From: a virus
Taxonomy: Duplodnaviria > Heunggongvirae > Uroviricota > Caudoviricetes
IMG/VR virus record: IMGVR_UViG_3300005660_000003
Span: 1 to 10,260 of that record
Length of the DNA stretch: 10,260 bases
Strand: one strand, 5' to 3'
How positions within the stretch are numbered: the stretch's first letter is position 1; each line of letters starts with the position of its first letter. The translations under genes and the position numbers were made by a program. Shown here in pieces: positions 1-10,260 of the stretch. The notes under the pieces were generated by a model. The model had not been told where the DNA came from, made no database searches, and saw only the letters and a program-made list of their open reading frames with translations.

Positions 1-7
1 GTTCTGT
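1..7 (+). other. R' box (GTTCTGT) of an upstream attC truncated by the window edge
   Basis: GTTCTGTGC (1-9) is the exact reverse complement of GCACAGAAC (597-605), the R'' flank of the next attC. Confidence 0.75.
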
Positions 8-159
8 GCCACCTTAGGTACATTACTTCCATCCTCCATGCAGTCTGCCCACATATTTGGCTTAAGTGTAAACCCATCCCAACCTATCGGGCGTTTATAC
101 CCTGTCTCTGTTTTTACTACGTCGTAATTCAACCCTAAACCATATGGAACTCTTTGCAT
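1..159 (-). CDS. Candidate 3'-truncated ORF (MQRVPYGLGLNYDVVKTETGYKRPIGWDGFTLKPNMWADCMEDGSNVPKVAQN...), runs off the window
   Basis: Hand translation: 53 codons with no stop from ATG 159 to position 1. The frame is open back to 357. No clear SD. Not in the track because it has no stop in the window. Confidence 0.3.
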   Translation of the reverse strand, partial: MQRVPYGLGLNYDVVKTETGYKRPIGWDGFTLKPNMWADCMEDGSNVPKVAQN

Positions 160-595
160 GACTGACTCTTTCTCTGAAGATTTATCGATTGCGGCACGTT
201 TCATGTGGAAACACCGAAACGAACCACAGTATTGGACATGGGAATCATTAACAGACCTAAACAAAGTCACAGACTCCCCTAATTTAAACCATGCTGTAGC
301 ATGGAACATTATTACGGTACTCGAAGGAAAGGGGTTCTTATTATCCTTTCCAGAATTTCAAAAAGACGGGCAAATTATCAAGTACCCATTTAAACTTCAT
401 CTTGGTGATCTAAAGGCGTGGCGTCGTATTAAACGATCCCCTTCTTGTTGCACATACTTAATTAATCTATGGGAAGATTTTTCGCCCAAACTCTATGCGT
501 TTATTATTGGTATCTTTTCATTAGCAATAGCATCTGTCATCGTTTACGCCCTACAACGCTACATCGATATCAAATGGCCAGCACCACCAAACTAA
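158..595 (+). CDS. Cassette 1 gene, conventional orientation; hypothetical 145-aa protein with a C-terminal transmembrane helix
   Basis: Stop TAA at 593-595 directly abuts the attC R'' (597-605), as in classic cassettes. Hydrophobic stretch LYAFIIGIFSLAIASVIVYAL. Confidence 0.75.
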   Translation: MTDSFSEDLSIAARFMWKHRNEPQYWTWESLTDLNKVTDSPNLNHAVAWNIITVLEGKGFLLSFPEFQKDGQIIKYPFKLHLGDLKAWRRIKRSPSCCTYLINLWEDFSPKLYAFIIGIFSLAIASVIVYALQRYIDIKWPAPPN

Positions 596-598
596 AGC

Positions 599-689
599 AC
601 AGAACAAAACGATGCACGCCGAGCAACGGTGGTTAGGTTATTGCTGTGGTTTGGTTACCTCCGTTGCCGGGTGATCGTCAGCGTTATTT
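599..689 (+). other. attC site 1 (91 bp)
   Basis: ACAGAAC-aaaac-gat[G]cac[G]ccg[A]gcaacgg ... ccgttgc-cgg-gtg-atc-gtcagc-GTTATTT. Confidence 0.9.
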
Positions 690-857
690 TGAAGACCCGG
701 CAGACCACCGAAACCAATGACGCGGAGTCATGATTTCAAGGCGTGGACCGCTGCCCGACTTCTTTCGCCCAAACAAAAACGCTGTCGTCCGAAAGTGGAG
801 ACAGAACCGACAGCCATAGGCTTGTGTGTACTCCACATCTTTCTGCACATGAACCAT
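684..857 (-). CDS. Cassette 2 inverted ORF, 57 aa (MVHVQKDVEYTQAYGCRFCLHFRTTAFLFGRKKSGSGPRLEIMTPRHWFRWSAGSSK); missing from the ORF track
   Basis: Hand translation. SD-like GAGAGGG just upstream of ATG 857. TAA stop at 686-684 lies in the bottom strand of the attC1 R' box. One CxxC motif. Confidence 0.6.
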   Translation of the reverse strand: MVHVQKDVEYTQAYGCRFCLHFRTTAFLFGRKKSGSGPRLEIMTPRHWFRWSAGSSK

Positions 858-872
858 GATTGCACCCTCTCA

Positions 873-963
873 AAATAACAACAAGTTGTACGCCGAGCAG
901 CGGGCCACCGTGACCCGCTTTACAAAGTGTCCCGCCGCTGCCGGGTAAACTTTGTCGTTCTAC
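873..963 (+). other. attC site 2 (91 bp)
   Basis: AAATAAC-aacaa-gtt[G]tac[G]ccg[A]gcagcgg ... ccgctgc-cgg-gta-aac-tttgtc-GTTCTAC. Confidence 0.9.
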
Positions 964-1244
964 GGATGCCGAACCAGTGAATACGTTTCGACGCTTGCTG
1001 AATACGCTTCCGCAATCCGTTTTGCAAACTTCTGACTCCTCGTTACGGTGCTTTGATCCACTACCGCCGACCATTGCCCGTTTCCGAAATCAAACCAAAA
1101 CCATTCCCCCTTGCTTTTATCTACAACTGCATACAACGTCAGTGGAGACAAAAACCGACCACGCTCAAGCCAACGGCCCCGCGCGTCCATCGCAAGCACC
1201 GCAGAACAATCAGATGCAGCCGAGCCGTCAACGTCGTTCGTCAT
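960..1244 (-). CDS. Cassette 3 inverted ORF, hypothetical 94-aa protein; N-terminus encoded by attC3
   Basis: SD AAGAAAGG 9 nt before ATG 1244, both inside the attC3 loop. TAG stop at 962-960 lies in the attC2 R' box. Aromatic-rich beta-like core (YAVVDKSKGEWFWFDFGNGQW). Confidence 0.7.
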   Translation of the reverse strand: MTNDVDGSAASDCSAVLAMDARGRWLERGRFLSPLTLYAVVDKSKGEWFWFDFGNGQWSAVVDQSTVTRSQKFAKRIAEAYSASVETYSLVRHP

Positions 1245-1305
1245 ATCCTGAAACCTTTCTTATGCAATGCAGGCTCGTCGGCCCGGCTGATCTGAGTCGT
1301 TATGC
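1201..1305 (+). other. attC site 3 (105 bp)
   Basis: GCAGAAC-aatca-gat[G]cagccg-a-gccg ... cggc-c-cggctg-atc-tgagtc-GTTATGC. Confidence 0.88.
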
Positions 1306-1842
1306 AGATACATCTTGACTCGGATACTGCGAACACAATTCACAGCGAAACTGACCACGTTCCTCGTCACTCAAATCCTTGCCGCAGTCTCCACATGTCC
1401 CATACCGCGACTTCTTGCACGTCGGGCAGTATCCAGCTCCGCGACCAGCACAGCCCTGACAGCCCTCCGCGTCTGGAAGCAGCGTTACAAAATCAGCCGC
1501 CATCCTGCGAACGGCGTTCGTAATCGCTTCGCGATATCGCTGCTTGTACTCATCGTTCATCCACCCGGCGACGACTTCAGTCAGCACTGATACGAGTCGT
1601 GTTTCTCCGCAGTTGGCTTTGTACGCTCCGTCTGCTGGCGGTGTCTCCAGTTTCCCATGAGGCACATCAATTAACTGCTCTCGCAGGTCTCGCATTGCTG
1701 CCGCAATTTCGTATTCCTGTGCGTCCATTGCGATCCTGATGGCGGCATCGAAGCTCTTAGCCACAAGTCTGGCTTTGGGCTTGCAGCTCGTCAGGCTATA
1801 CAGCGAAAACAGTAATCTGCCAATATCTTTTTGCGCACTCAT
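1300..1842 (-). CDS. Cassette 4 inverted ORF B, ~180 aa: UVR (UvrB/UvrC-type) motif plus four C-terminal CxxC pairs
   Basis: Start reassigned to ATG 1842, which forms an ATGA overlap with the upstream stop. AMDAQEYEIAAAMRDLREQL fits the UVR motif. CQGC, CPTC, CGDC, CELC. TAA stop at 1302-1300 lies in the attC3 R' box. Confidence 0.75.
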   Translation of the reverse strand: MSAQKDIGRLLFSLYSLTSCKPKARLVAKSFDAAIRIAMDAQEYEIAAAMRDLREQLIDVPHGKLETPPADGAYKANCGETRLVSVLTEVVAGWMNDEYKQRYREAITNAVRRMAADFVTLLPDAEGCQGCAGRGAGYCPTCKKSRYGTCGDCGKDLSDEERGQFRCELCSQYPSQDVSA

Positions 1843-2177
1843 GACTGGAACCCCACAAACGGACGGTTGCAATGATCACACCTGCCTGACGGCAGCCTGT
1901 AGCCAATACCGCAGGTCTGGCACACATACCCAGCCAGATCCTGAATCTCTTCAATCTCACGAAATGCTGCCCCCGCATGCACTGCTGGCTGTAACACTTC
2001 GCCGCTCGCAATCTCAAGCAGTCTGCGACGCATTACTGCGTGTTCTCGCATTAGCCTGTCAACATCTGCGAGCTTGACAAACTTGCCTGTTTTCGACTCC
2101 ATCACAAGCGAGCACTGATACAGCGGAAGCTGCATAACAATGCAATCAACCGGAGTTGCCGACGATGCGTTTTCCAT
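1839..2177 (-). CDS. Cassette 4 inverted ORF A, ~112 aa, C-terminal zinc ribbon (CQTC...CDHC); N-terminus encoded by attC4
   Basis: SD GAAAGG 8 nt before ATG 2177 inside the attC4 loop; alternative TTG start at 2183. Stop overlaps the start of ORF B. Confidence 0.7.
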   Translation of the reverse strand: MENASSATPVDCIVMQLPLYQCSLVMESKTGKFVKLADVDRLMREHAVMRRRLLEIASGEVLQPAVHAGAAFREIEEIQDLAGYVCQTCGIGYRLPSGRCDHCNRPFVGFQS

Positions 2178-2222
2178 GATCAAAACCTTTCACCGGCAAC
2201 CCGGTTATTGCAAGCGTTCGCC
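2132..2222 (+). other. attC site 4 (91 bp), canonical structure
   Basis: GCATAAC-aatgc-aat[C]aaccgg[A]gttgccg ... cggcaac-ccggtt-att-gcaagc-GTTCGCC. Top-strand extrahelical C and A correspond to bottom-strand G and T, as in classical attC sites. Confidence 0.93.
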
Positions 2223-2254
2223 GCCACACTCTTCTCTTCAATCTCTCTCTTCAT
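2180..2254 (-). CDS. 24-aa peptide MKREIEEKSVAANACNNRVAGERF translated through the right arm of attC4
   Basis: Strong SD TAGGAG 7 nt before ATG 2254. TGA stop in the attC4 loop overlaps TTG 2183 and lies 2 nt before ATG 2177. Confidence 0.5.
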   Translation of the reverse strand: MKREIEEKSVAANACNNRVAGERF

Positions 2255-2340
2255 TTTCTTCTCCTAAATAAAAGTTTTCAAATTCTGCACTAAAATTCCC
2301 GAATTCTTCGGACAAATCAAGCCCCTCATGCGATTCGCTT

Positions 2341-2430
2341 ATGGGATTTTTTCGTTTCACTCTGGGGATCGACATGGAGATTCTCGTCATCATTTGCTTG
2401 CTCATCTGGAATTACGTTTCAAGCGATTAA
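2341..2430 (+). CDS. Small hydrophobic peptide, 29 aa (MGFFRFTLGIDMEILVIICLLIWNYVSSD) or 18 aa from ATG 2374
   Basis: Hand translation. GGGGA precedes ATG 2374. Its TAA merges into the SD (TAAGGGG) of the next peptide. Confidence 0.45.
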   Translation: MGFFRFTLGIDMEILVIICLLIWNYVSSD

Positions 2431-2439
2431 GGGGTTACT

Positions 2440-2520
2440 ATGGCCGCAATACAGTTTCTCTTTGGTTTGGCCCTCGGGGTCTTTGTCCTTACCATAACGA
2501 AAGAAAAGAAACGACAATGA
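2440..2520 (+). CDS. 26-aa single-TM peptide with basic tail (MAAIQFLFGLALGVFVLTITKEKKRQ)
   Basis: SD TAAGGGG 5 nt upstream. Its stop overlaps the next start (ATGA 2517-2520). Confidence 0.55.
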   Translation: MAAIQFLFGLALGVFVLTITKEKKRQ

Positions 2521-2720
2521 ATTTCGCAAACCTTACACCAATGCCGAGCTCTTCAACTAATCAAAACGTTTTCATCAATCCTGCGTTCGTCACTCACGTT
2601 GGCAGTGATGCTGGCGGTACAACGATCATCTTCTTTAGCGGTGGCACGTCCACCACAATTGATGACACTCCGGCTCGTGTAGTCGAAGAATTGATTAAGG
2701 CCAGCAATTCATCTGTGTGA
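2517..2720 (+). CDS. 67-aa small beta-rich protein, FlbD-like pattern (true start probably 2517, not 2328)
   Basis: MNFANLT...VFINPAFVTHV...TTIIFFSGG...IDDTPARVVEEL resembles the FlbD-type pattern by eye. ATGA coupling to the upstream peptide. Confidence 0.6.
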   Translation: MNFANLTPMPSSSTNQNVFINPAFVTHVGSDAGGTTIIFFSGGTSTTIDDTPARVVEELIKASNSSV

Positions 2721-3034
2721 ACTGGCACATCAATTTTTGTCCCATTGTCTAGATGAGCAAAACAACTTTCACGCCTCCACTTTTGCCAGTATCCTTCGTT
2801 GGTGATTGCCACAATTCTACTCGGATCCACCACGCAAAAGGTATGTTCCACTTCGTGGACCTTCGCTTCTTCTGGTGCCTGCCCAAATTCATGGAATGTG
2901 CTTAGGTCATCATTCACATGATATTTCCCCCTAAACACTAAAAGCGGCGAACAAAGCGTTGAACCCGAGCTACCGGTGTCGGGTTCTGGGGTGGTTTGGG
3001 TTCCGGCGGCAGCCGGGTTAACTTGGTCGTTCAT
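2594..3034 (-). CDS. Cassette 5 inverted ORF (146 aa from ATG 3034, reading through attC5; alternative GTG start at 2917); C-terminal half FlbD-like pattern
   Basis: ATG overlaps the TGA of the upstream phage gene. SD AGGGGG lies 9 nt before in-frame GTG 2917. VVDPSRIVAI...CFAHLDNGTKIDV...DELLALIN. Confidence 0.65.
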   Translation of the reverse strand: MNDQVNPAAAGTQTTPEPDTGSSGSTLCSPLLVFRGKYHVNDDLSTFHEFGQAPEEAKVHEVEHTFCVVDPSRIVAITNEGYWQKWRRESCFAHLDNGTKIDVPVHTDELLALINSSTTRAGVSSIVVDVPPLKKMIVVPPASLPT

Positions 3035-3035
3035 A
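2946..3035 (+). other. attC site 5 (90 bp), distal end of the array
   Basis: GGCGAAC-aaagc-gtt[G]aacccg[A]gctaccg ... cggcagc-cgggtt-aac-ttggtc-GTTCATA. Confidence 0.88.
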
Positions 3036-3516
3036 AATATTCCTCTATCTGATCTAAGTCAGAAATTTTAATGTTAAAACAATCACACTTTACTTTAAAA
3101 TGTGTACCTTCTTCTATTTCATCCTTTTTAAGGAATTGGGCTTTCTCCATAAAAGCTACTACGGGGATTATACCCAAACAATAAGCTGTGGATAAGTCGT
3201 TGGTTATTCTATAAAAAGCATAATGACTACACTCTTTTTTCTTCACTTGGTACGCTGCAACTGTACAAGAATAGGAATCCAGTGGTCTCGAAGAGCACCT
3301 CTTAGCTTTAATATCAATACACCCTATTTTTGCGTGAGCAACATCATAATTATAAGAGTCTACTAGCTCTCCGCCATAAGTGTCGAGAAAAAGTTCCTCA
3401 GCAACCATACCAGCTAGCTCCCCATCACTACAAATCTTTTTACTATTTTCACCGATTTTGCTTGCTCTGGCTTGAGCTTTGCTCAAGACAGCTTCAGAGA
3501 CTTCTAATTCTGTCAA
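3031..3516 (-). CDS. Phage PD-(D/E)XK restriction-endonuclease-fold protein (putative)
   Basis: Motifs GMVAEE, NYD and CIDIKAK fit an E...D...(D/E)xK active site. TTG start with SD GGAGGAGG overlaps the recA stop. Confidence 0.6.
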   Translation of the reverse strand: MTELEVSEAVLSKAQARASKIGENSKKICSDGELAGMVAEELFLDTYGGELVDSYNYDVAHAKIGCIDIKAKRCSSRPLDSYSCTVAAYQVKKKECSHYAFYRITNDLSTAYCLGIIPVVAFMEKAQFLKKDEIEEGTHFKVKCDCFNIKISDLDQIEEYL

Positions 3517-4598
3517 GCTTCCTCCTCCCCATCTTCTTCCGGAGGAACAAAATCATAAGATATTGAATACTTTTCTATAAAATAATCCTTTATAATCTTT
3601 TGAAAAAGTTCCAAGTTTTCTTCTATTACAGCTACTGCTTTATCTGACCCCTGAGCTCTTATTTCTGTACCATCTGGTAACATAAAATAATACCACGCAC
3701 CCTTAGTGGTTAACAATCCTGTTTCTGGTAAAACTTCTAGGGCCTCCATAGCCCAATAAATACCCTCACCAAACCTAAGATAAGAATTAATAGGATTTTC
3801 CTTACTAACATAAGGGGCAAGTTTCTTATTATACGGCATTTGCCATTTAATTAGTTGGCCCTTCAGGCTTTCACCGTCTTTATTATTTAGTCTACTACCA
3901 TCCCAATCATACGGTTTGTGGCGAGCCTCTAAAACTATATCACATTCATATTCAAGTTTTACACCACCATCTGGCACTAATGGATCACCATACCCGGAGG
4001 TATTTGTGATAAAGTGTTGAATACCTATTACAATAGATCTAGTAGTACGAACAAGATTACCTATCTTTTTACAAAAATCCGCATTAAGTTTTGGGGTAGT
4101 GTCTCGCCTATTACCCTTAATGTCAATGTCGTTAAGAGTATCTTCTGGAATTATTTTAGAAAATGAATCTATTACATAAACTGCCCCTTTATACTTAGGA
4201 AGACCCATCATATCTTTAATGGTTTTGTATATTTTATCTCCAGATAAAACGGGGACACCCTCCTGAGATCTTAATATTAAAAATTTGGGATTATTTATAT
4301 CTAATCCTTTAATTTGAAAGTATTTTTCCCCAAGTAATCTACATTCAACATCGGCATAAATAACATATCTTCCTTGAGCTAGGGCGTTGGTCGCTATTTG
4401 CATAGCACACATCGACTTCCCGAGTTTAGGCGGGGTCCTAATAAGAACCAAACTTCCCTCTGGGATTCCACCTCCAAGTTTAGCATCTAGGGAAGGACCA
4501 ACAGATACAACGTATGGACTTGCTTTTTCTTTTGTAATTATACTAGCAGCACTTTGGAATAAGTTTTTATCTATAAGTGGTTTTTTGGCTTTAGCCAT
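3513..4598 (-). CDS. recA: RecA/UvsX-family recombinase (phage type)
   Basis: SLDAKLGGGIPEG, P-loop variant TPPKLGKS, YADVE, Walker B VYVIDS, DGGVKLEYECD, C-terminal KGAWY and QG motifs, acidic tail; 361 aa. Confidence 0.9.
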   Translation of the reverse strand: MAKAKKPLIDKNLFQSAASIITKEKASPYVVSVGPSLDAKLGGGIPEGSLVLIRTPPKLGKSMCAMQIATNALAQGRYVIYADVECRLLGEKYFQIKGLDINNPKFLILRSQEGVPVLSGDKIYKTIKDMMGLPKYKGAVYVIDSFSKIIPEDTLNDIDIKGNRRDTTPKLNADFCKKIGNLVRTTRSIVIGIQHFITNTSGYGDPLVPDGGVKLEYECDIVLEARHKPYDWDGSRLNNKDGESLKGQLIKWQMPYNKKLAPYVSKENPINSYLRFGEGIYWAMEALEVLPETGLLTTKGAWYYFMLPDGTEIRAQGSDKAVAVIEENLELFQKIIKDYFIEKYSISYDFVPPEEDGEEEA

Positions 4599-4954
4599 TA
4601 ATTCTTCTTTCTGAAGAGTGGTGAAGTTTCACATGGGGTGACTTGTGGGTTTTGTTTAGCTATGTGCTCTCTTAGGTTTTTCTCATTTGTAAGCCGAGCC
4701 TGCTCGACCTCTATTAAATCTGGCAACTTTTTAGCATATAAAGACCAACACCAAGATTCTTTTCTTATTGTGTTCCATATAGCTTCCTCACTATAGGCCC
4801 TGAATAATTTTGCTGCTATTATAGTTTGCTGTTGGTACTCCTTTTTATATTTTGGTAATCTCCAAAACGCCTCCGGAAGAGTTATCCCTTGTTTTTCATA
4901 CTTTCTCTTTATTATATAAGATACTAGCATTTCTCTCTGGGATGATTCCCCCAT
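4598..4954 (-). CDS. Hypothetical phage protein (118 aa)
   Basis: ATG start; TAATG overlap with the recA start; in operon. Confidence 0.75.
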   Translation of the reverse strand: MGESSQREMLVSYIIKRKYEKQGITLPEAFWRLPKYKKEYQQQTIIAAKLFRAYSEEAIWNTIRKESWCWSLYAKKLPDLIEVEQARLTNEKNLREHIAKQNPQVTPCETSPLFRKKN

Positions 4955-5236
4955 TTATTCACTCCTGTAAATTCCCCTGTGCTCATCAGAGGCCTGAGTT
5001 GGTTGTGTGGGAGCTGGTTCCTTATCAATGTCTGCAGTCATTTGATAAACTTTTTGCCCATTCTTTAGGGTAATCTTAGAAGCACCCAACCTATTTGCTT
5101 TATTAGTTTTATCATAGATCTCTTTGATCAGAGCTTCTGACAAATCTAATTCTTGGGAAATTTCCGCAATACTTTTACTTCCGGCGAAACTACTAATATA
5201 AAGCTCGTCTGCCGGGTTCAATTTTTTTCGACTCAT
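4955..5236 (-). CDS. Hypothetical protein with possible N-terminal helix-turn-helix
   Basis: SIAEISQELDLSEALIKEIY is HTH-like. ATGA overlap with the upstream gene. Confidence 0.65.
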   Translation of the reverse strand: MSRKKLNPADELYISSFAGSKSIAEISQELDLSEALIKEIYDKTNKANRLGASKITLKNGQKVYQMTADIDKEPAPTQPTQASDEHRGIYRSE

Positions 5237-5559
5237 ATTTGTCCGCTCGCTTGCATTGCTTGTGTTGTTAGTTTGTAAAGCCCCTCATGCTTAGTAGTTA
5301 AATACTTGACATAATTTTCAAAAATATCCCTAGTAACCTTAATAAAGGTTGGATTAATTAAACTTTTATTCATCTTGGTTTCATGATGAATTGGTTTAAG
5401 CCCCTCTACTCGTATGTAGTGCTTAGTGTTATCGTCCGACACCACCTCTTTTGCAACTATATTGTTCGCCACCTTTGTTTCATCACCATTGATATCATAC
5501 AAATAGTAAAAACTTTCATTGTGTTTTCCACCATAAATAAATTCTACTTGATCTACCAT
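5233..5559 (-). CDS. Hypothetical phage protein (108 aa; start reassigned to ATG 5559, MVDQVEF...)
   Basis: ATG lies 1 nt after the upstream stop (5561-5563). The track start at 5664 would overlap another gene by ~100 nt. Confidence 0.7.
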   Translation of the reverse strand: MVDQVEFIYGGKHNESFYYLYDINGDETKVANNIVAKEVVSDDNTKHYIRVEGLKPIHHETKMNKSLINPTFIKVTRDIFENYVKYLTTKHEGLYKLTTQAMQASGQI

Positions 5560-5560
5560 T

Positions 5561-5788
5561 TTAAATTTTTCTCTTATAAAAGACTCTTGGTTTACACATA
5601 ATTTTATTTTCATCAATAAATTCGAAATAATATTTATCATTACCAGAAAGCTTGGGGTACCCAATGAAGGTTTCTATTATTTCTTTACCACACACACACT
5701 GGACCTTAAAACTTACAATCTCTTCTCCACCGGAGTCTATGGCATACAACAACTCTTCTTGACACTTACTACAGGTTATAACGCTCAA
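5561..5788 (-). CDS. Small zinc-ribbon protein (CSKC...CVCG)
   Basis: Cys motifs; TTG start in a TTGA overlap with SD GGGGG. Confidence 0.7.
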   Translation of the reverse strand: MSVITCSKCQEELLYAIDSGGEEIVSFKVQCVCGKEIIETFIGYPKLSGNDKYYFEFIDENKIMCKPRVFYKRKI

Positions 5789-5997
5789 GTGGCCCCCAAT
5801 TCTTTAATTGCCGCTAATATAGCGGCAACTTTTGCCGCCACTTCTTCGGGCGAGCCCGGCTTTATTGTAATTAAGAAATTTTTTAGTCCAGCTTCCCGTT
5901 GGGCTTTTAGACCCACACTTTTTCCTAATTCTCCAGTGGTTTCTACCTCATGAACATATACGGATATAGATATTATTGCTTGATGGGCTTTACTCAA
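5785..5997 (-). CDS. Hypothetical protein (70 aa)
   Basis: TTGA overlaps at both ends; in operon. Confidence 0.6.
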   Translation of the reverse strand: MSKAHQAIISISVYVHEVETTGELGKSVGLKAQREAGLKNFLITIKPGSPEEVAAKVAAILAAIKELGAT

Positions 5998-6200
5998 AGG
6001 GATTTTCTTTCTACTAATTCATATTCTATAATGTCTATTTTTGACGCAGAAATATTATTATTATCTTTACAAAGCTTTCTTACTCTGCGGGCTTCAGCTA
6101 GTTCTTCAAACACTTTGGCGGACTTTTGTTTTGTTGACCACCTTTTGTTTTTGGTAAAAAAGTTATTTCCGATACGTTCTCGTATCATGTATACGTTCAC
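5994..6200 (-). CDS. Hypothetical protein (68 aa)
   Basis: GTG start in a GTGA overlap with the upstream stop. Confidence 0.65.
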   Translation of the reverse strand: MNVYMIRERIGNNFFTKNKRWSTKQKSAKVFEELAEARRVRKLCKDNNNISASKIDIIEYELVERKSL

Positions 6201-6523
6201 AATATTCCTTTCTCAATAAAATCCCGCATTTGTTTATTTGTATTTATGGCCTGAATCTTCTGCGTTCTGGATTGTGCATTTAATTTTTCTTCTGCCCCAA
6301 CACCAAAAGCCCGCTCCCTAGATAGTGGATTACGACGGTTGTTTAATTCTAGTAGTGAACCTACCGTGCGTGGGTCACACAGCTTAGAAATAATAGGCCC
6401 AGAAATAAGACGTTCTAAATCCCCATTACAGATAGGGCACTTTTCGTAGATTTCTGTATGATTTTGCAAGAATTCTATATCTCCACAAGATTCGCAGAGG
6501 TATTCTTTAGTTACTAGTGCCAA
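6197..6523 (-). CDS. FmdB-family zinc-ribbon putative regulatory protein
   Basis: EYLCESCG...EKCPICNGDLERLIS matches the FmdB-type CxxC-CxxC pattern. SD AAGGG before TTG. Confidence 0.75.
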   Translation of the reverse strand: MALVTKEYLCESCGDIEFLQNHTEIYEKCPICNGDLERLISGPIISKLCDPRTVGSLLELNNRRNPLSRERAFGVGAEEKLNAQSRTQKIQAINTNKQMRDFIEKGIL

Positions 6524-6557
6524 TTTAATTTTCCCTTAATTGAATTGTTTTTCTTAT

Positions 6558-6570
6558 TACTGTTACAGTA
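6558..6570. promoter_or_regulatory. Intergenic palindrome TACTGT-T-ACAGTA, possible operator
   Basis: Perfect 6-bp inverted repeat in the 68-bp gap upstream of the FmdB-like gene. Confidence 0.3.
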
Positions 6571-6591
6571 GGCATCTAAAATAGAAACGTG

Positions 6592-6927
6592 TTATGAAAC
6601 AATACAACCTTTTTCAAGATTCCCAATATAATCCGGTCCTTCGCCGTAAGATATAGCTATATTACGTGTAGCCCATAACGGTTGAAGATTTGTATAATGG
6701 AAGCAAATTTTCTGTTGCTCGGGATCTGAAAGATCAAAAGATGCACAAGGTTTTATATGATCTAAGTGCCATCCTTTGTCTCCGTGATTTTTCCAAGTCA
6801 TACCCTGAGTAAACTTTGACTCAATGTGTTCAATAAAAAATGATATATTACAACTTAATAAATTAAACGTTAAGTCCGATTTTGAGGCTTTATGATTTTT
6901 TAAGATTGCTCGTATTCTTTCTCTCAT
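6592..6927 (-). CDS. HNH-type (endonuclease VII-like) homing endonuclease domain, short and possibly N-terminally truncated
   Basis: [40 protein letters not shown] are hallmark motifs of this viral endonuclease family. No SD before the ATG. Confidence 0.75.
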
Positions 6928-6948
6928 CTTCTATAATATACTTCTCTG

Positions 6949-6962
6949 TTTTTGATCAAAAA
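6949..6962. promoter_or_regulatory. 14-bp perfect palindrome TTTTTGATCAAAAA overlapping a weak -35-like element upstream of the HNH gene
   Basis: Directly read. On the minus strand: TTTTGA-N17-TATTAT, then ATG 5 nt later (possible leaderless start). Confidence 0.3.
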
Positions 6963-6970
6963 ATTTATTT

Positions 6971-7576
6971 TCACTGAGTTTCCAGCTCTGCAAGGTACTT
7001 GAGGCAGATCTGAGACCACGTTTCAAATTCATCGATTTGCCCCACCAATTCTGACGGTGGTGCGAATCCTGCGTTTATCATCGACTTTTCACGGGGCTGA
7101 ACTTTGGGTTTGTCCAAATTGAAAATATGAACTATCCCAAGATGAACTTTCCCAACTTCTGTTTCATCGTCGTTGATTAACCCAACGCACTTTTCTGTCC
7201 AGTCTGCCTGAATCTCCACCTCTTCCTCAATCTCCCGTTTCATTCCTTCAAGATACGGAGACTGCACACCATCGAGGTCCAGTGTTGAGACATGGCCGCC
7301 GACGCCGACCGATCGCTTGGCGTGCAACCGCGCTTCTCCCTGAGCCGTTCCACGCTGATAGAAGAAGATCTCGCCGTTGCAACGAAACACGCAGTACGGG
7401 ATCAGCTGCTTGAAGGTGGGATCCTGCTCCATCTCAGGTCGAGGCCGATAGCTGGCGTGTTGCGGATCCAGAATCACCTGCAGGTAACGCTCGATGTCGC
7501 TGCTGAATCCCTGAAAATGACCGACCTGAAGAAAGACGGGAGTTGGAATGACCAAAACACGCTCATTTAACGACAT
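6971..7576 (-). CDS. NUDIX-family predicted phosphoesterase (YmaB/COG4112-like), cellular-type sequence
   Basis: [20 protein letters not shown], Nudix box [28 protein letters not shown] clearly higher than the flanks (spot counts 40-63% vs 23-30%). Confidence 0.88.
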
Positions 7577-7982
7577 ACTTTACTCCATCTAAAATCAAAG
7601 AGCTTATGCTTCTATGGTCTACTTGACGAATATTGTTGGTTGGCAAATCTAAATCAATCACTATACTTCTTCCCAAAATTGGTTCGCTCTTAATAAAATG
7701 CCCACGCAAGGATCTGTCAACTCCGTCCCCTTTAAGAAAAGTAACCGTAAATGGGCGAATTCCAGCCCCCATTAATTTTTCTACCACATGAGTGATGGGG
7801 CACTTTTCTTCATGGTTAAATTCGTCTGCTGACCACACATTGCCTATTTCTTCAAAGTAGTCGAGTGGGCACTCATATTCTTTTTGCCCACCTAGGTCTA
7901 ATACGGTGATAGCATCCTCAGACACCTTTGATATCTTGTAATAGCCCATTTCGCACACTATATCATTTTCTTTAATCTTCAA
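7563..7982 (-). CDS. Hypothetical protein with C-terminal WYL-like/DUF2693-type SH3 barrel (tentative)
   Basis: [17 protein letters not shown]...VIDLD...[13 protein letters not shown] pattern. SD TAGGAG before TTG. Confidence 0.55.
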
Positions 7983-7992
7983 GCTTGTTCTC

Positions 7993-8760
7993 CTAAAATT
8001 TAATTCCAGTTAATGATCCAATATATGTTTCACCCATTTGTTGGTATGGCGTTGTAGTCATTTTTAATCCTTCAAACACAGGTTTTTCATTAATCCATAT
8101 CCCCTTACTTTTATCTATAAATAAAATCGCCGCCAATACATCATGCATAGCTTTAGTTGGATCTAATTTATTAAAAAATGCCCGCACCCTTTGGTTCTCA
8201 GGAACCCATATCTTTTCAAGATGAGCCTTTGTAAACCCATGACAAACATTTTTACCAACAAAGTATTTAGACTTTATGTTTTCGGAATCTACAATTCTTT
8301 TAAAATCTTCTCTAGCACCAGAAGGATTGAATGATTGTACAGAGTGAAGATTTTTGAATTTTTCTAAAGGTCTGATGCTTTTGGGGCAATGCCCACCCTG
8401 AAAGAAGAGTTCGTTACAAGATAATTTATTTCCAATGTTTTTATGTGGGCCAATTATTAAGGCCCGGTCTACAGTTAGATCTAGCTCAGAAAGATCTTCT
8501 GTTGGCAATAAGCAGTTTCCAGAAAAATCTTTATGCTTACCATAAGAAAACTTTTCGTTATATTCCACATCTTTTGAATTATAAAGCTTGGGATATGAAA
8601 TATCGTATGAATTTATTATAGTGGTCAATATCTCATTTTGCTGTAGATGGCCGGGAGATAAACCAATTATATTTGGAACAGCATTATTTTCAATTAAGTA
8701 CGCTAAAGCAATAGCATCATCTGGATCATGTCCTAAGTCTGTATGTAGTAATATTTTCAA
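7993..8760 (-). CDS. Inosine/uridine-preferring nucleoside hydrolase family protein
   Basis: N-terminal TDLGHDPDDAIAL (DxxxDxDD Ca-binding motif), SFNP and MHDVLAA motifs. Confidence 0.75.
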   Translation of the reverse strand: MKILLHTDLGHDPDDAIALAYLIENNAVPNIIGLSPGHLQQNEILTTIINSYDISYPKLYNSKDVEYNEKFSYGKHKDFSGNCLLPTEDLSELDLTVDRALIIGPHKNIGNKLSCNELFFQGGHCPKSIRPLEKFKNLHSVQSFNPSGAREDFKRIVDSENIKSKYFVGKNVCHGFTKAHLEKIWVPENQRVRAFFNKLDPTKAMHDVLAAILFIDKSKGIWINEKPVFEGLKMTTTPYQQMGETYIGSLTGIKF

Positions 8761-9155
8761 AACTTATACCTCTTACTGGTGTCCGAAGTTGACTTGTCAA
8801 CTTCTATTGTTTCTAGTATATCCTTACTTAACCTGCTTATATTAAAGTCACCCCTACCTAATTCTAAAATGTGCGTAGATGAAGCCACCACCTTTTTCGC
8901 CGCGTCTAGCGGGGCATCCGCATCATACATTTTACCAAATTTATTCGGCTTTAGGTTTTTGCTTCCTTCAGTGGCATCCCAAATTATTGGTATGATTTCT
9001 ACACCTATCTTTGAGCTGGCTGCGAATTTAGCAGCCATCTTATGATCCAAGGAAACAAATTTAATAAAACCCTCAGTTTTAGCAACTTCTTCTAAGGTTG
9101 AACGCAGTTCTGCGTAATCTTCGAATTCACGATCTATGGAAAGGGCCACTTTCAA
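8757..9155 (-). CDS. Degenerate SLOG-superfamily (DUF2493/YspA-like) protein
   Basis: MKV...REFEDY.EL, PIIWD, NKFGKMYDADA follow the DUF2493 pattern, but the GSR, GAD and RN motifs are absent. Confidence 0.5.
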   Translation of the reverse strand: MKVALSIDREFEDYAELRSTLEEVAKTEGFIKFVSLDHKMAAKFAASSKIGVEIIPIIWDATEGSKNLKPNKFGKMYDADAPLDAAKKVVASSTHILELGRGDFNISRLSKDILETIEVDKSTSDTSKRYKF

Positions 9156-9937
9156 GTTTTGTACCTCTTCATAATTTCTATTAGAAATGGATCACGCACA
9201 ATATCATTTTCATGAAACTCTACGTAACCCACATCTCTCATTCCATAAAATCTATCTACTGCATCATCTAGACCACAAAGTTCCCCTCTATTAAGTCTTA
9301 TATCTATTTGATCTGGGTCGCCCATAATAACTAGCTTACTGCCTTCCCCAATTCTAGATATAAAACTTTTCATTTCGCCGACTGTGGTGTTTTGACTTTC
9401 GTCTAGAATACATATACTTCCTATTGGATTACCAGTTGAGTCATATCTTCCGAAGGTAGTCCCCCTAATATAGTTAAGAACCACTTCTTTAATTATACCA
9501 TTTTCAGTTAGATATTTACACCCTTCTTTACCAACTAGTTTTACTATATTATCATAGAAATGAGCAAAGTGTACGGCAGTTTTGTCACTAACCTCTCCGG
9601 GCAAATGTCCGAGACCCTTACCGGAGGTAATTTCAACAATGGGCTTAGTAAGAAAAATTTGATCTATGTTAAAAGAGGTGTCCTTGACTATGTTTATGGC
9701 TGCCGCTAAAGCACAAATGGTCTTCCCCACGCCAGCAACACTACGAACAAAAGTTATACGATTATCTAATATAGTATTATACAAGTCTCTTTGTTTGTTG
9801 TTTTTAAACTTGAAGATCAGCTTGGGTTGAGGACGTGTTGGAACATATTCTTGACTTGGGGCCTCTATTGCTCTACCATGAGCTGTTACGTGACGAGTTT
9901 GTGTTGGTTTTGGTCTTTTTGTTCTATGTCTGGTCAA
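9152..9937 (-). CDS. phoH: PhoH-family ATPase (phage type)
   Basis: SVAGVGKT P-loop, LGHLPG, YIRGTTF, ILDESQN, SRIGEGSKLVIMGDPDQID, DIVRDP. Confidence 0.92.
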   Translation of the reverse strand: MTRHRTKRPKPTQTRHVTAHGRAIEAPSQEYVPTRPQPKLIFKFKNNKQRDLYNTILDNRITFVRSVAGVGKTICALAAAINIVKDTSFNIDQIFLTKPIVEITSGKGLGHLPGEVSDKTAVHFAHFYDNIVKLVGKEGCKYLTENGIIKEVVLNYIRGTTFGRYDSTGNPIGSICILDESQNTTVGEMKSFISRIGEGSKLVIMGDPDQIDIRLNRGELCGLDDAVDRFYGMRDVGYVEFHENDIVRDPFLIEIMKRYKT

Positions 9938-9947
9938 GGTTATTCCT

Positions 9948-10259
9948 TTAAGGAAAGGGGTTGGTTATTATATTAGTAAACACTACTGGTGGTTTTAATT
10001 CACGGTCTTTATGTCTAACTAAAAGTTTAATATCTTTATATTTTCTAAAGTCTAGCCTTCGTTTGGCAAATTTTGTTTCGCATTCTTTTTTAAGCTTTAA
10101 AAAATCTACATCTGATATGTTGCTAAAATAATCGTACACATTCGCATCAAATTCAGTAGCGTAAGCCATAGCCAAAATGTGACTTTTACGCAAAGAAGCT
10201 GCGGGTTTAAAATCTGGCGAGGCTAATTTACTAAATAGTACAGGACTAGGAACCCACTT
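9948..10259 (-). CDS. Hypothetical protein, 5'-truncated by the window edge
   Basis: The frame stays open upstream of the track start at 10193 (KWVPSPVLFSKLASPDFKPAASLRK...). Its stop merges with the phoH SD (TAAAGGA). Confidence 0.7.
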   Translation of the reverse strand, partial: KWVPSPVLFSKLASPDFKPAASLRKSHILAMAYATEFDANVYDYFSNISDVDFLKLKKECETKFAKRRLDFRKYKDIKLLVRHKDRELKPPVVFTNIITNPFP

Positions 10260-10260
10260 T

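Follow-up and report, generated by a model that had tools for sequence, protein, structure and literature searches.

The array and its cassettes

The window analyzed here comprises the first 10,260 bases of the IMG/VR record IMGVR_UViG_3300005660_000003, a phage contig of 117,774 bases with a GC content of 37% that is 67% complete according to the CheckV estimate. Its leftmost 3038 bases carry repeated hairpins with the anatomy of integron attC sites, and between them lie small genes, several of which end with their stop codon in the conserved R' box of such a site. We identify this region as part of a phage cluster of attC sites lacking integron integrases (CALIN) that is made largely of cassettes of reversed polarity, that is, cassettes in which the cargo gene is antisense to its attC site.

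A covariance model built on four of the hairpin repeats was scored against both strands of the window. It matched five sites on the + strand with 44–92 bits, whereas the minus strand gave 12–17 bits. The first two sites, S1 (599–692; R'' AAC 603–605, R' GTT 683–685) and S2 (873–966; R'' AAC 877–879, R' GTT 957–959), scored 92 and 91 bits, S3 with its long loop (1201–1308; R'' AAC 1205–1207, R' GTT 1299–1301) scored 70 bits, S4 (2132–2225; R'' AAC 2136–2138, R' GTT 2216–2218) scored 44 bits at an E value of 2.6e-9, and S5 (2946–3038; R' GTT 3029–3031), the last site of the array, scored 82 bits. The sites form imperfect inverted repeats of R''/R' and L''/L' boxes that fold as hairpins. Over 26 family members, 95.7% of the stem cells are paired, with compensatory changes at 14 of the 17 stem pairs, and pairing falls to 24–39% when the stem partner is slid by one to three columns. 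The 26-member alignment was itself fitted to the covariance model, and a separate MAFFT alignment of four sequences agrees with it (20 pairs, 95–96% of cells paired). The extrahelical bases, usually a G and an invariant A spaced 6–7 nt apart, are all located on the 5' arm of the + strand. At the bulged position preceding the conserved A–T pair, 22 of 26 sites carry a G, and a third 5'-arm bulge is present in S1 and S2. Between the outer and inner boxes, the left spacer measures 5 nt and the right one 6 nt. Judged from sequence and predicted fold, the hairpins are genuine attC sites of the type found in integrons of Planctomycetota and Acidobacteriota.

Divided at the G|TT of the R' boxes, the central part of the array yields three cassettes with genes on the minus strand. 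Cassette A (684–957) contains gene A, read from 857 to 684, cassette B (958–1299) contains gene B, read from 1244 to 960, and cassette C (1300–2216) contains genes C1 (2177 to 1839) and C2 (1842 to 1300). The stop codons of genes A, B, and C2 lie 0–2 nt past the G|TT of the R' box. The TAA of gene A (686–684, the reverse complement of TTA 684–686) and the TAA of gene C2 (1302–1300, from TTA 1300–1302) are the first three bases of their cassettes, and the TAG of gene B (962–960, from CTA 960–962) begins two bases past the crossover. An earlier note on this DNA had placed these three stops in R' boxes, which the sequence confirms, and a further R' stop that it did not contain is the TGA 3033–3031 of a phage backbone gene on the GTT of S5. 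Its description of three consecutive cassettes holds for the stops but requires one correction, in that the third cassette harbors two genes, C1 and C2, which overlap by ATGA and are translationally coupled. As this cassette has its own attC at 2132–2225, position 2177 is the ATG of its first gene inside the attC loop, and the first 15 codons of C1 lie within that attC.

On the top strand, cassettes A to C thus consist in order of TT(A), the reverse-complemented gene, a ribosome-binding site, the cassette's own attC, and G. Read in the direction of the gene, the attC comes first, and no further triplet separates the stop codon from the crossover point. With the stop placed as the first triplet of the cassette, the open reading frame (ORF) would stay intact whatever attC precedes it. 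In the loops of S3 and S4, GAAAGGTTT is followed after 6–7 nt by ATG (minus strand, 1242–1262 and 2175–2195), so that the start of cargo translation is built into the variable loop of the cassette's own attC. A homolog of C1 in contig L027 likewise starts inside its own attC. It is the only gene of its cassette, which is bounded by two attC sites, and its TAA lies in R'; cassette C therefore probably arose by fusion of two cassettes.

Polarity of the attC sites

In known attC sites, the extrahelical bases are positioned 6–8 nt apart on the R''–L'' arm, the unpaired central spacer is asymmetric, crossover takes place in R', and the first extrahelical base selects the strand (Bouvier 2009; PMC2727003). 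The sites of the window show extrahelical bases on this arm alone together with an asymmetric central spacer, and their 5'-arm bulges identify the + strand as the attC top strand by this rule. The first bulged base of these sites would read C on the bottom strand, where a G is usual.

A pattern scan of cellular genomes, with one genome per prokaryote species (GTDB), recovered the same site type mainly from Planctomycetota and Acidobacteriota among the matches listed. Integron integrase (IntI; TIGR02249 above cut-off) adjoins same-family sites in four cellular and five viral loci, and is divergent from the top strand in all of them (4/4 and 5/5). A divergent IntI is the geometry of classical integrons. 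In model coordinates, 71 cellular cassette ORFs are sense and 4 are antisense to their attC. The earlier note had assigned the + orientation from the left-arm bulges and the 5/6 spacers; predicted folds, the covariance model, IntI geometry, cellular ORFs, and cassette junctions all agree with this assignment. With the attC top strand on + and the genes on minus, the genes are antisense to the direction in which any cassette promoter (Pc) would read, as had been proposed. The complementarity of the box at a cassette end with the box at the start of the next attC was considered as a polarity test and dropped, because both polarities predict it.

Coding evidence for the cargo genes

Gene A (684–857, minus strand; 57 aa) has GAGGG 7 nt before its ATG and homologs of 65–81% identity. 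Gene B (960–1244, minus; 94 aa), with both its start and GAAAGG inside the S3 loop, has a 74% identical homolog, P0039, that ends at the same residue. The product of C1 (1839–2177, minus; 112 aa) contains a C-terminal CxxC...CxxC motif and is 74–76% identical to P0022, and the product of C2 (1300–1842, minus; 180 aa) has a Cys-rich zinc-ribbon tail and 20 homologs. In DNA alignments to homologs, substitutions were counted at codon positions 1/2/3 of the minus frame. These counts were 8/2/21 for gene A, 7/10/36 for gene B, 20/9/44 for C1, and 18/13/62, 7/5/33, 9/6/42, and 12/4/35 for C2, an excess at the third position in all four minus ORFs. By frame arithmetic, the same variable sites occupy first or second codon positions in the + strand shadow ORFs 717–878, 977–1318, and 1315–1590, and shadow ORF 1739–2077 gives the same outcome over its overlap with 1839–2177; the + shadow ORFs are consequently noncoding. 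One of them, 977–1318, crosses attC S3 entirely. Gene calls in the stretch matching 684–2177 are on the minus strand only, in every copy. The earlier note had considered that the + shadow ORFs rather than the minus ORFs might prove to be conserved; it is the minus ORFs that have homologs and coding substitutions, and the + shadows do not. Based on these substitution patterns, the four minus ORFs are real genes.

Searches of Pfam and PHROG with the cargo proteins returned no family beyond weak zinc-ribbon matches and no pair of toxin and antitoxin domains, and assigned no function to ten cassette proteins of contig L003. Feature searches of the ESM Atlas yielded sub-threshold leads only, and an AlphaFold model of the 180-aa protein C2 had a mean predicted local distance difference test score of 56. 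An alignment of C2 homologs shows a conserved core ending in ...CSQYPS, followed by C-terminal tails that differ in almost every homolog. This variation begins at most about 15 nt from the cassette boundary, and the 3' ends of the family look, in this alignment, as if they had been repeatedly re-made at the crossover.

Movement of reversed cassettes

P0005, a relative of C2, is encoded in a cassette that is identical in four contexts, namely an 88-kb phage contig, a nine-cassette array, and two other contigs. The identity ends exactly at the G|TT of R' on both sides, and the gene travels with the attC adjoining its start codon. Four more viral cassette pairs from different arrays have retained the cassette body and its own attC next to a preceding attC that is only 65–72% identical, again with junctions at G|TT and an unchanged antisense ORF. 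Crossover at G|TT, giving cassettes of the form TT...G, is thus documented in relatives of the window's cassettes. The recurrence of the same reversed cassettes in different arrays with exact G|TT junctions identifies them as mobile units and not only as trapped genes. As judged by these sequence comparisons, reversed cassettes move as a unit [TT...attC...G], and they keep their antisense ORF when shuffled, in line with the ORF precision that the earlier note had anticipated.

Viral contigs L203, L243, L190, L170, and L268 encode an integron integrase (TIGR02249, 266–310 bits) beside same-family attC sites. Of these, L190, L203, and L243 were scored, and in all three the longest ORFs of the cassettes lie antisense to attC, reading toward intI. 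Contigs L215 and L269 have a reversed cassette in common, although their arrays are different; this cassette forms one of the four pairs above and encodes a 229-aa protein that contains a DPPY motif and that we read as a putative DNA methyltransferase.

Cassette polarity in viral and cellular arrays

A comparison of ORF orientation in viral and cellular cassettes, proposed in the earlier note, was carried out with one attC pattern and one detector on IMG/VR and on species genomes. It covered 113 viral and 120 cellular loci among the matches listed, to which all counts in this section refer. Cassettes bounded by two sites were scored, and orientation was taken from the longest ORF per strand. 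The survey used a stricter scanner that reproduces the coordinates and strands of the covariance model.

Viral cassettes were antisense in 85 cases, sense in 8, and without a clear call in 30, and cellular cassettes were antisense in 21, sense in 122, and without a clear call in 43. Counted by locus, an antisense majority was found in 40 and a sense majority in 1 of the viral loci (antisense majority in 40/52), compared to 3 and 43, respectively, of the cellular loci. At 85% identity, 110 of the 123 viral cassettes are distinct. The stop of viral antisense cassettes is exactly on the R' TTA in 36/85 and within 15 nt of it in 70/85. For the shadow ORFs of cellular sense cassettes, which serve as a baseline, the stop is on the R' TTA in 2/122, and GTTA is about equally common in the viral and cellular sets. 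Cellular sense cassettes show the mirror of the viral pattern, their stop overlapping the R'' AAC in 20/122, which is the position given for classical cassettes in the earlier note. Within the contigs sampled, those of viruses usually have the reversed layout, which cellular contigs rarely show.

Extent and surroundings of the array

Eight other public contigs match the window, seven with 100% and one with 99.97% identity. Two of the 100% identical contigs, L014 and L015, extend to the left and contain six further attC sites (L014:7833–10948), the nearest of which ends at window positions 1–10. Together with the five sites of the window, they form an 11-site array on one strand. The GTT of the R' box of the preceding attC occupies positions 1–3 (+ strand). 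As the contig starts exactly at an attC GTT and longer identical contigs exist, its left end is probably an assembly break in a repeat. A CALIN has been defined by at least two same-strand attC sites that lie within 4 kb and have no IntI nearby (Cury 2016; PMC4889954). The array agrees with this definition: the window contains five sites and L014 contains 11, and they all share a strand. No complete integron, with intI, attI, and Pc adjacent, was found within the 117.8 kb.

Cassette 0 (2–683) encodes a 145-aa protein with a C-terminal hydrophobic helix on the + strand (158–595), and its stop lies 4 nt before R''. Its longest ORF is 438 nt in the sense and 93 nt in the antisense direction. It has a classical forward layout and is antisense to the phage operon; it alone fits a classical Pc-expressed cassette, which genes A, B, C1, and C2 do not. 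In the left part of the array (L014:7833–10948), short ORFs between the sites are sense to attC, and longer antisense ORFs cross whole attC sites. Cassette D (2217–3029) has overlapping candidates at 2517–2720 (+) and 2594–2929/3034 (minus), with longest ORFs of 393 versus 345 nt, and gene callers disagree between its copies. The minus ORF 2594–3034 has an ATGA overlap with the stop of the adjoining 161-aa backbone gene, crosses the bottom strand of S5 in frame for about 31 codons, and continues into the cassette D gene, for which an alternative GTG start at 2929 is preceded by AGGGGG. This could reflect either translation of the attC or a frame that happens to be open.

The GC content is 52–58% at 600–2250. 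From 3031 to 10260, the window contains low-GC phage genes on the minus strand, including a RecA-like (3513–4598) and a PhoH-like (9152–9937) backbone gene. The first of these low-GC genes (3031–3516, minus; 161 aa) ends with TGA 3033–3031, which overlaps the GTT of S5 (3029–3031), so that array and phage meet precisely at a stop codon. The junction between array and backbone reads G|TTCAT, in which TCA is the TGA of the 161-aa gene on the minus strand. No match was obtained in a search of viral contigs for related phages with the RecA-like protein as query, or in a megablast search of GenBank phages with the window.

A lone attC of the same family is located about 33.3 kb into the genome (G000:C1:33329–33422, corresponding to L009:3429–3522, + strand; 56.6 bits). 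It adjoins a GC-rich stretch of approximately 400 nt, with low-GC phage genes around it and a 352-aa gene close by, and may represent a single-cassette insertion. The 201-aa ORF at 6971–7576 (minus), with about 51–57% GC inside a backbone of 33–40% GC, has no attC beside it and no Pfam match; it may be another acquired gene.

Discussion

The reading that we favor is that positions 1–3038 of the window constitute the right part of an 11-site CALIN in a large uncultured phage, and that A, B, and C are cassettes of reversed polarity. We put its probability at roughly 0.8.

Read gene by gene, the array looks classical: a gene, a stop in a core box, a hairpin, about 16–20 nt, and the next start. 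Moreover, the R'' and R' heptamers are near-palindromic and alone give no strand discrimination. Had the polarity been mis-called, with attC on the minus strand, A to C would be ordinary forward cassettes with their stop in R'', as in aadA-type cassettes. This is very improbable, given that the bulges and the spacer asymmetry would then be on the wrong arm, that the same model orientation in bacterial integrons is sense to the ORFs and divergent from IntI, and that cassettes shared between contigs carry the attC at the start side of the gene, not after its stop, and break at the R' of the model. We give hardly any credence to the suggestion that the hairpins resemble attC sites only superficially and act as structural elements of RNA or DNA, such as mRNA-stabilizing 3' stem-loops, terminators, or elements like repetitive extragenic palindromes (REP). 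Each hairpin does directly follow a stop in the sense of the gene, as REP elements and terminators do, and the contig revealed no recombinase. However, there is no T-tract after the hairpins, a terminator scan performed at chance level, and conserved unpaired bases, AAC/GTT boxes, and 5/6 spacers are specific to attC. In addition, the same family occurs in IntI-linked arrays, with cassette junctions at G|TT.

It is also conceivable, although in our estimation unlikely, that the reversed layout is a passive by-product, with a cassette array or single attC sites having landed antisense in phage operons, so that phage genes trapped between attC sites resemble reversed cassettes and their ORFs run to the first stop, supplied by the A/T-rich R' box. 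All four cargo genes have attC-less homologs in other phages, C-terminal tails diverge right after the conserved core near the boundary, about 60% of sites, in the viral as in the cellular set, have a GTTA that yields TAA on the opposite strand, and no integrase was found in 117.8 kb, all of which such an origin would accommodate. It accounts less readily for the same reversed cassettes in different arrays with exact G|TT junctions, for the very strong bias over 110 distinct cassettes and 40/52 viral loci among the matches listed, and for reversed cassettes beside phage-encoded IntI. The by-product account concerns origin more than it excludes function, and in this respect it overlaps with the reversed-cassette reading that we prefer.

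Several observations weigh against that preferred reading. The array is mixed, with at least one sense cassette in its left part (158–595) and five cassettes without a clear strand call. All eight other contigs carry the identical array, so that movement of the window's own cassettes is deduced from relatives. No integrase or other tyrosine recombinase (PF00589, TIGR02249) was detected in the 117.8 kb of a record that is 67% complete, and promoter and terminator scans remained at the level of shuffled sequence or chance. As to the survey, orientation follows a longest-ORF rule under which a quarter of the cassettes have no clear call, the labels "viral" in IMG/VR and "cellular" in GTDB are imperfect given that prophages occur in genomes, and the counts represent the matches listed rather than an exhaustive set.

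In reversed-polarity cassettes, expression and recombination would operate as follows. An IntI, supplied either by the host or by the third of the phage genome that is missing here, would act on the folded bottom strand and cut at AA|C of R', and the bottom strand is here the coding strand as well. The cargo would be transcribed by read-through from the minus-strand operon that runs from the PhoH-like through the RecA-like to the 161-aa gene, and translated from its own ribosome-binding sites, with no need for a Pc promoter.

Such cassettes could be born by recombination between an attC located ahead of a phage gene and a GWT secondary site at the stop codon of that gene. A stop in the context TAAC or TAGAAC reads GTTA or GTTCTA on the other strand, so that the gene would be captured flush to its stop. 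All four cargo genes have homologs among ordinary phage genes that lack an attC in their vicinity (L007, L023, L029, L151, and L153). Gene B and its attC-less homolog share the same last residue, after which the window has TAG|AAC and the homolog TAGACC. The insertion site of a single cassette in contig L001, CTTG|TTAAAA, matches the GWT consensus for attG, and no empty site for this insertion was found among viral contigs. Cassettes were reported to insert at GWT sites, and imprecise excision can carry flanking DNA (Loot et al.; bioRxiv 10.1101/2022.09.11.507474). Combined, these two processes would permit an attC upstream of a phage gene to capture the gene at a GTTA or GTTCTA at its stop codon. 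Recombination of attC with attG also explains cassettes and arrays outside attI, for example at CTTG|TTAAAA in L001 and at G|TTCAT between array and phage, but that work concerned the chromosomes of E. coli and V. cholerae, and the capture of phage genes as reversed cassettes is the extension proposed here (10.1101/2022.09.11.507474).

The more general proposal, which we consider evenly balanced, is that phages keep their own pool of mirror-image cassettes, each composed of attC, ribosome-binding site, gene, and a stop at the crossover, which are read from phage promoters, toward intI where a phage integrase is present, and were made by capturing accessory genes at their stops. The contrast between the viral and cellular sets points to a separate, phage-adapted pool of swappable genes. 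If this is true, the recombinogenic strand is the coding strand, and genes co-oriented with replication would place it on the lagging-strand template. Phage arrays would then be prone to recombination, the opposite of stable bacterial chromosomal integrons. There would also be pairs of a cassette and its non-cassette ancestor, which would make the birth of cassettes directly testable.

With classical integrons (class 1 and the chromosomal integrons of Planctomycetota and Acidobacteriota), the array shares the R''–L''...L'–R' hairpin with AAC/GTT boxes, a 5/6 spacer, and a variable loop (93–108 nt), the extrahelical bases 6–7 nt apart on the R''–L'' arm, the order TT...attC...G with crossover at G|TT, and a sequence family that occurs beside IntI in bacteria. 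It differs in that the bottom strand carries the ORF, the gene is preceded by the attC, and the crossover adjoins the stop instead of the start. Pc could not express these genes, and the homologs of the cargo are phage genes. Many Vibrio toxin–antitoxin cassettes are also found in reverse orientation. These likewise do not depend on Pc, carrying their own promoter (Richard et al. 2024; PMC13108822), but they are a minority in sense arrays and encode pairs, whereas reversal is the rule among the viral cassettes sampled here.

Clusters of attC sites without integrase in virulent or uncharacterized phages, some of whose sites recombined with attI1 via IntI1, are described in Qi et al. 2023 (PMC9892861). 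One example given there, phage TJE1, has 3 sites compared to 11 here, and we found no mention there of ORFs antisense to attC or of stops in R'. A literature search, with most subscription journals outside its reach, returned no description of phage cassettes that are systematically antisense to attC with stops in R'. Phage CALINs and cassettes with their own promoters are already known.

The small accessory cargo, along with the putative DNA methyltransferase in a relative, suggests a possible role in the exchange of counter-defense genes. It is a premise of integron biology that the polarity of attC ensures expression from Pc. Cassette surveys that take only same-strand ORFs upstream of attC would miss or mis-translate the reversed pool. 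The cargo homologs that are ordinary phage genes and end at the same residue would provide material for studying the unsolved genesis of cassettes. Phage and host cassette pools would be partly separate despite their common attC types, and phages would use integron recombination under a different logic of expression.

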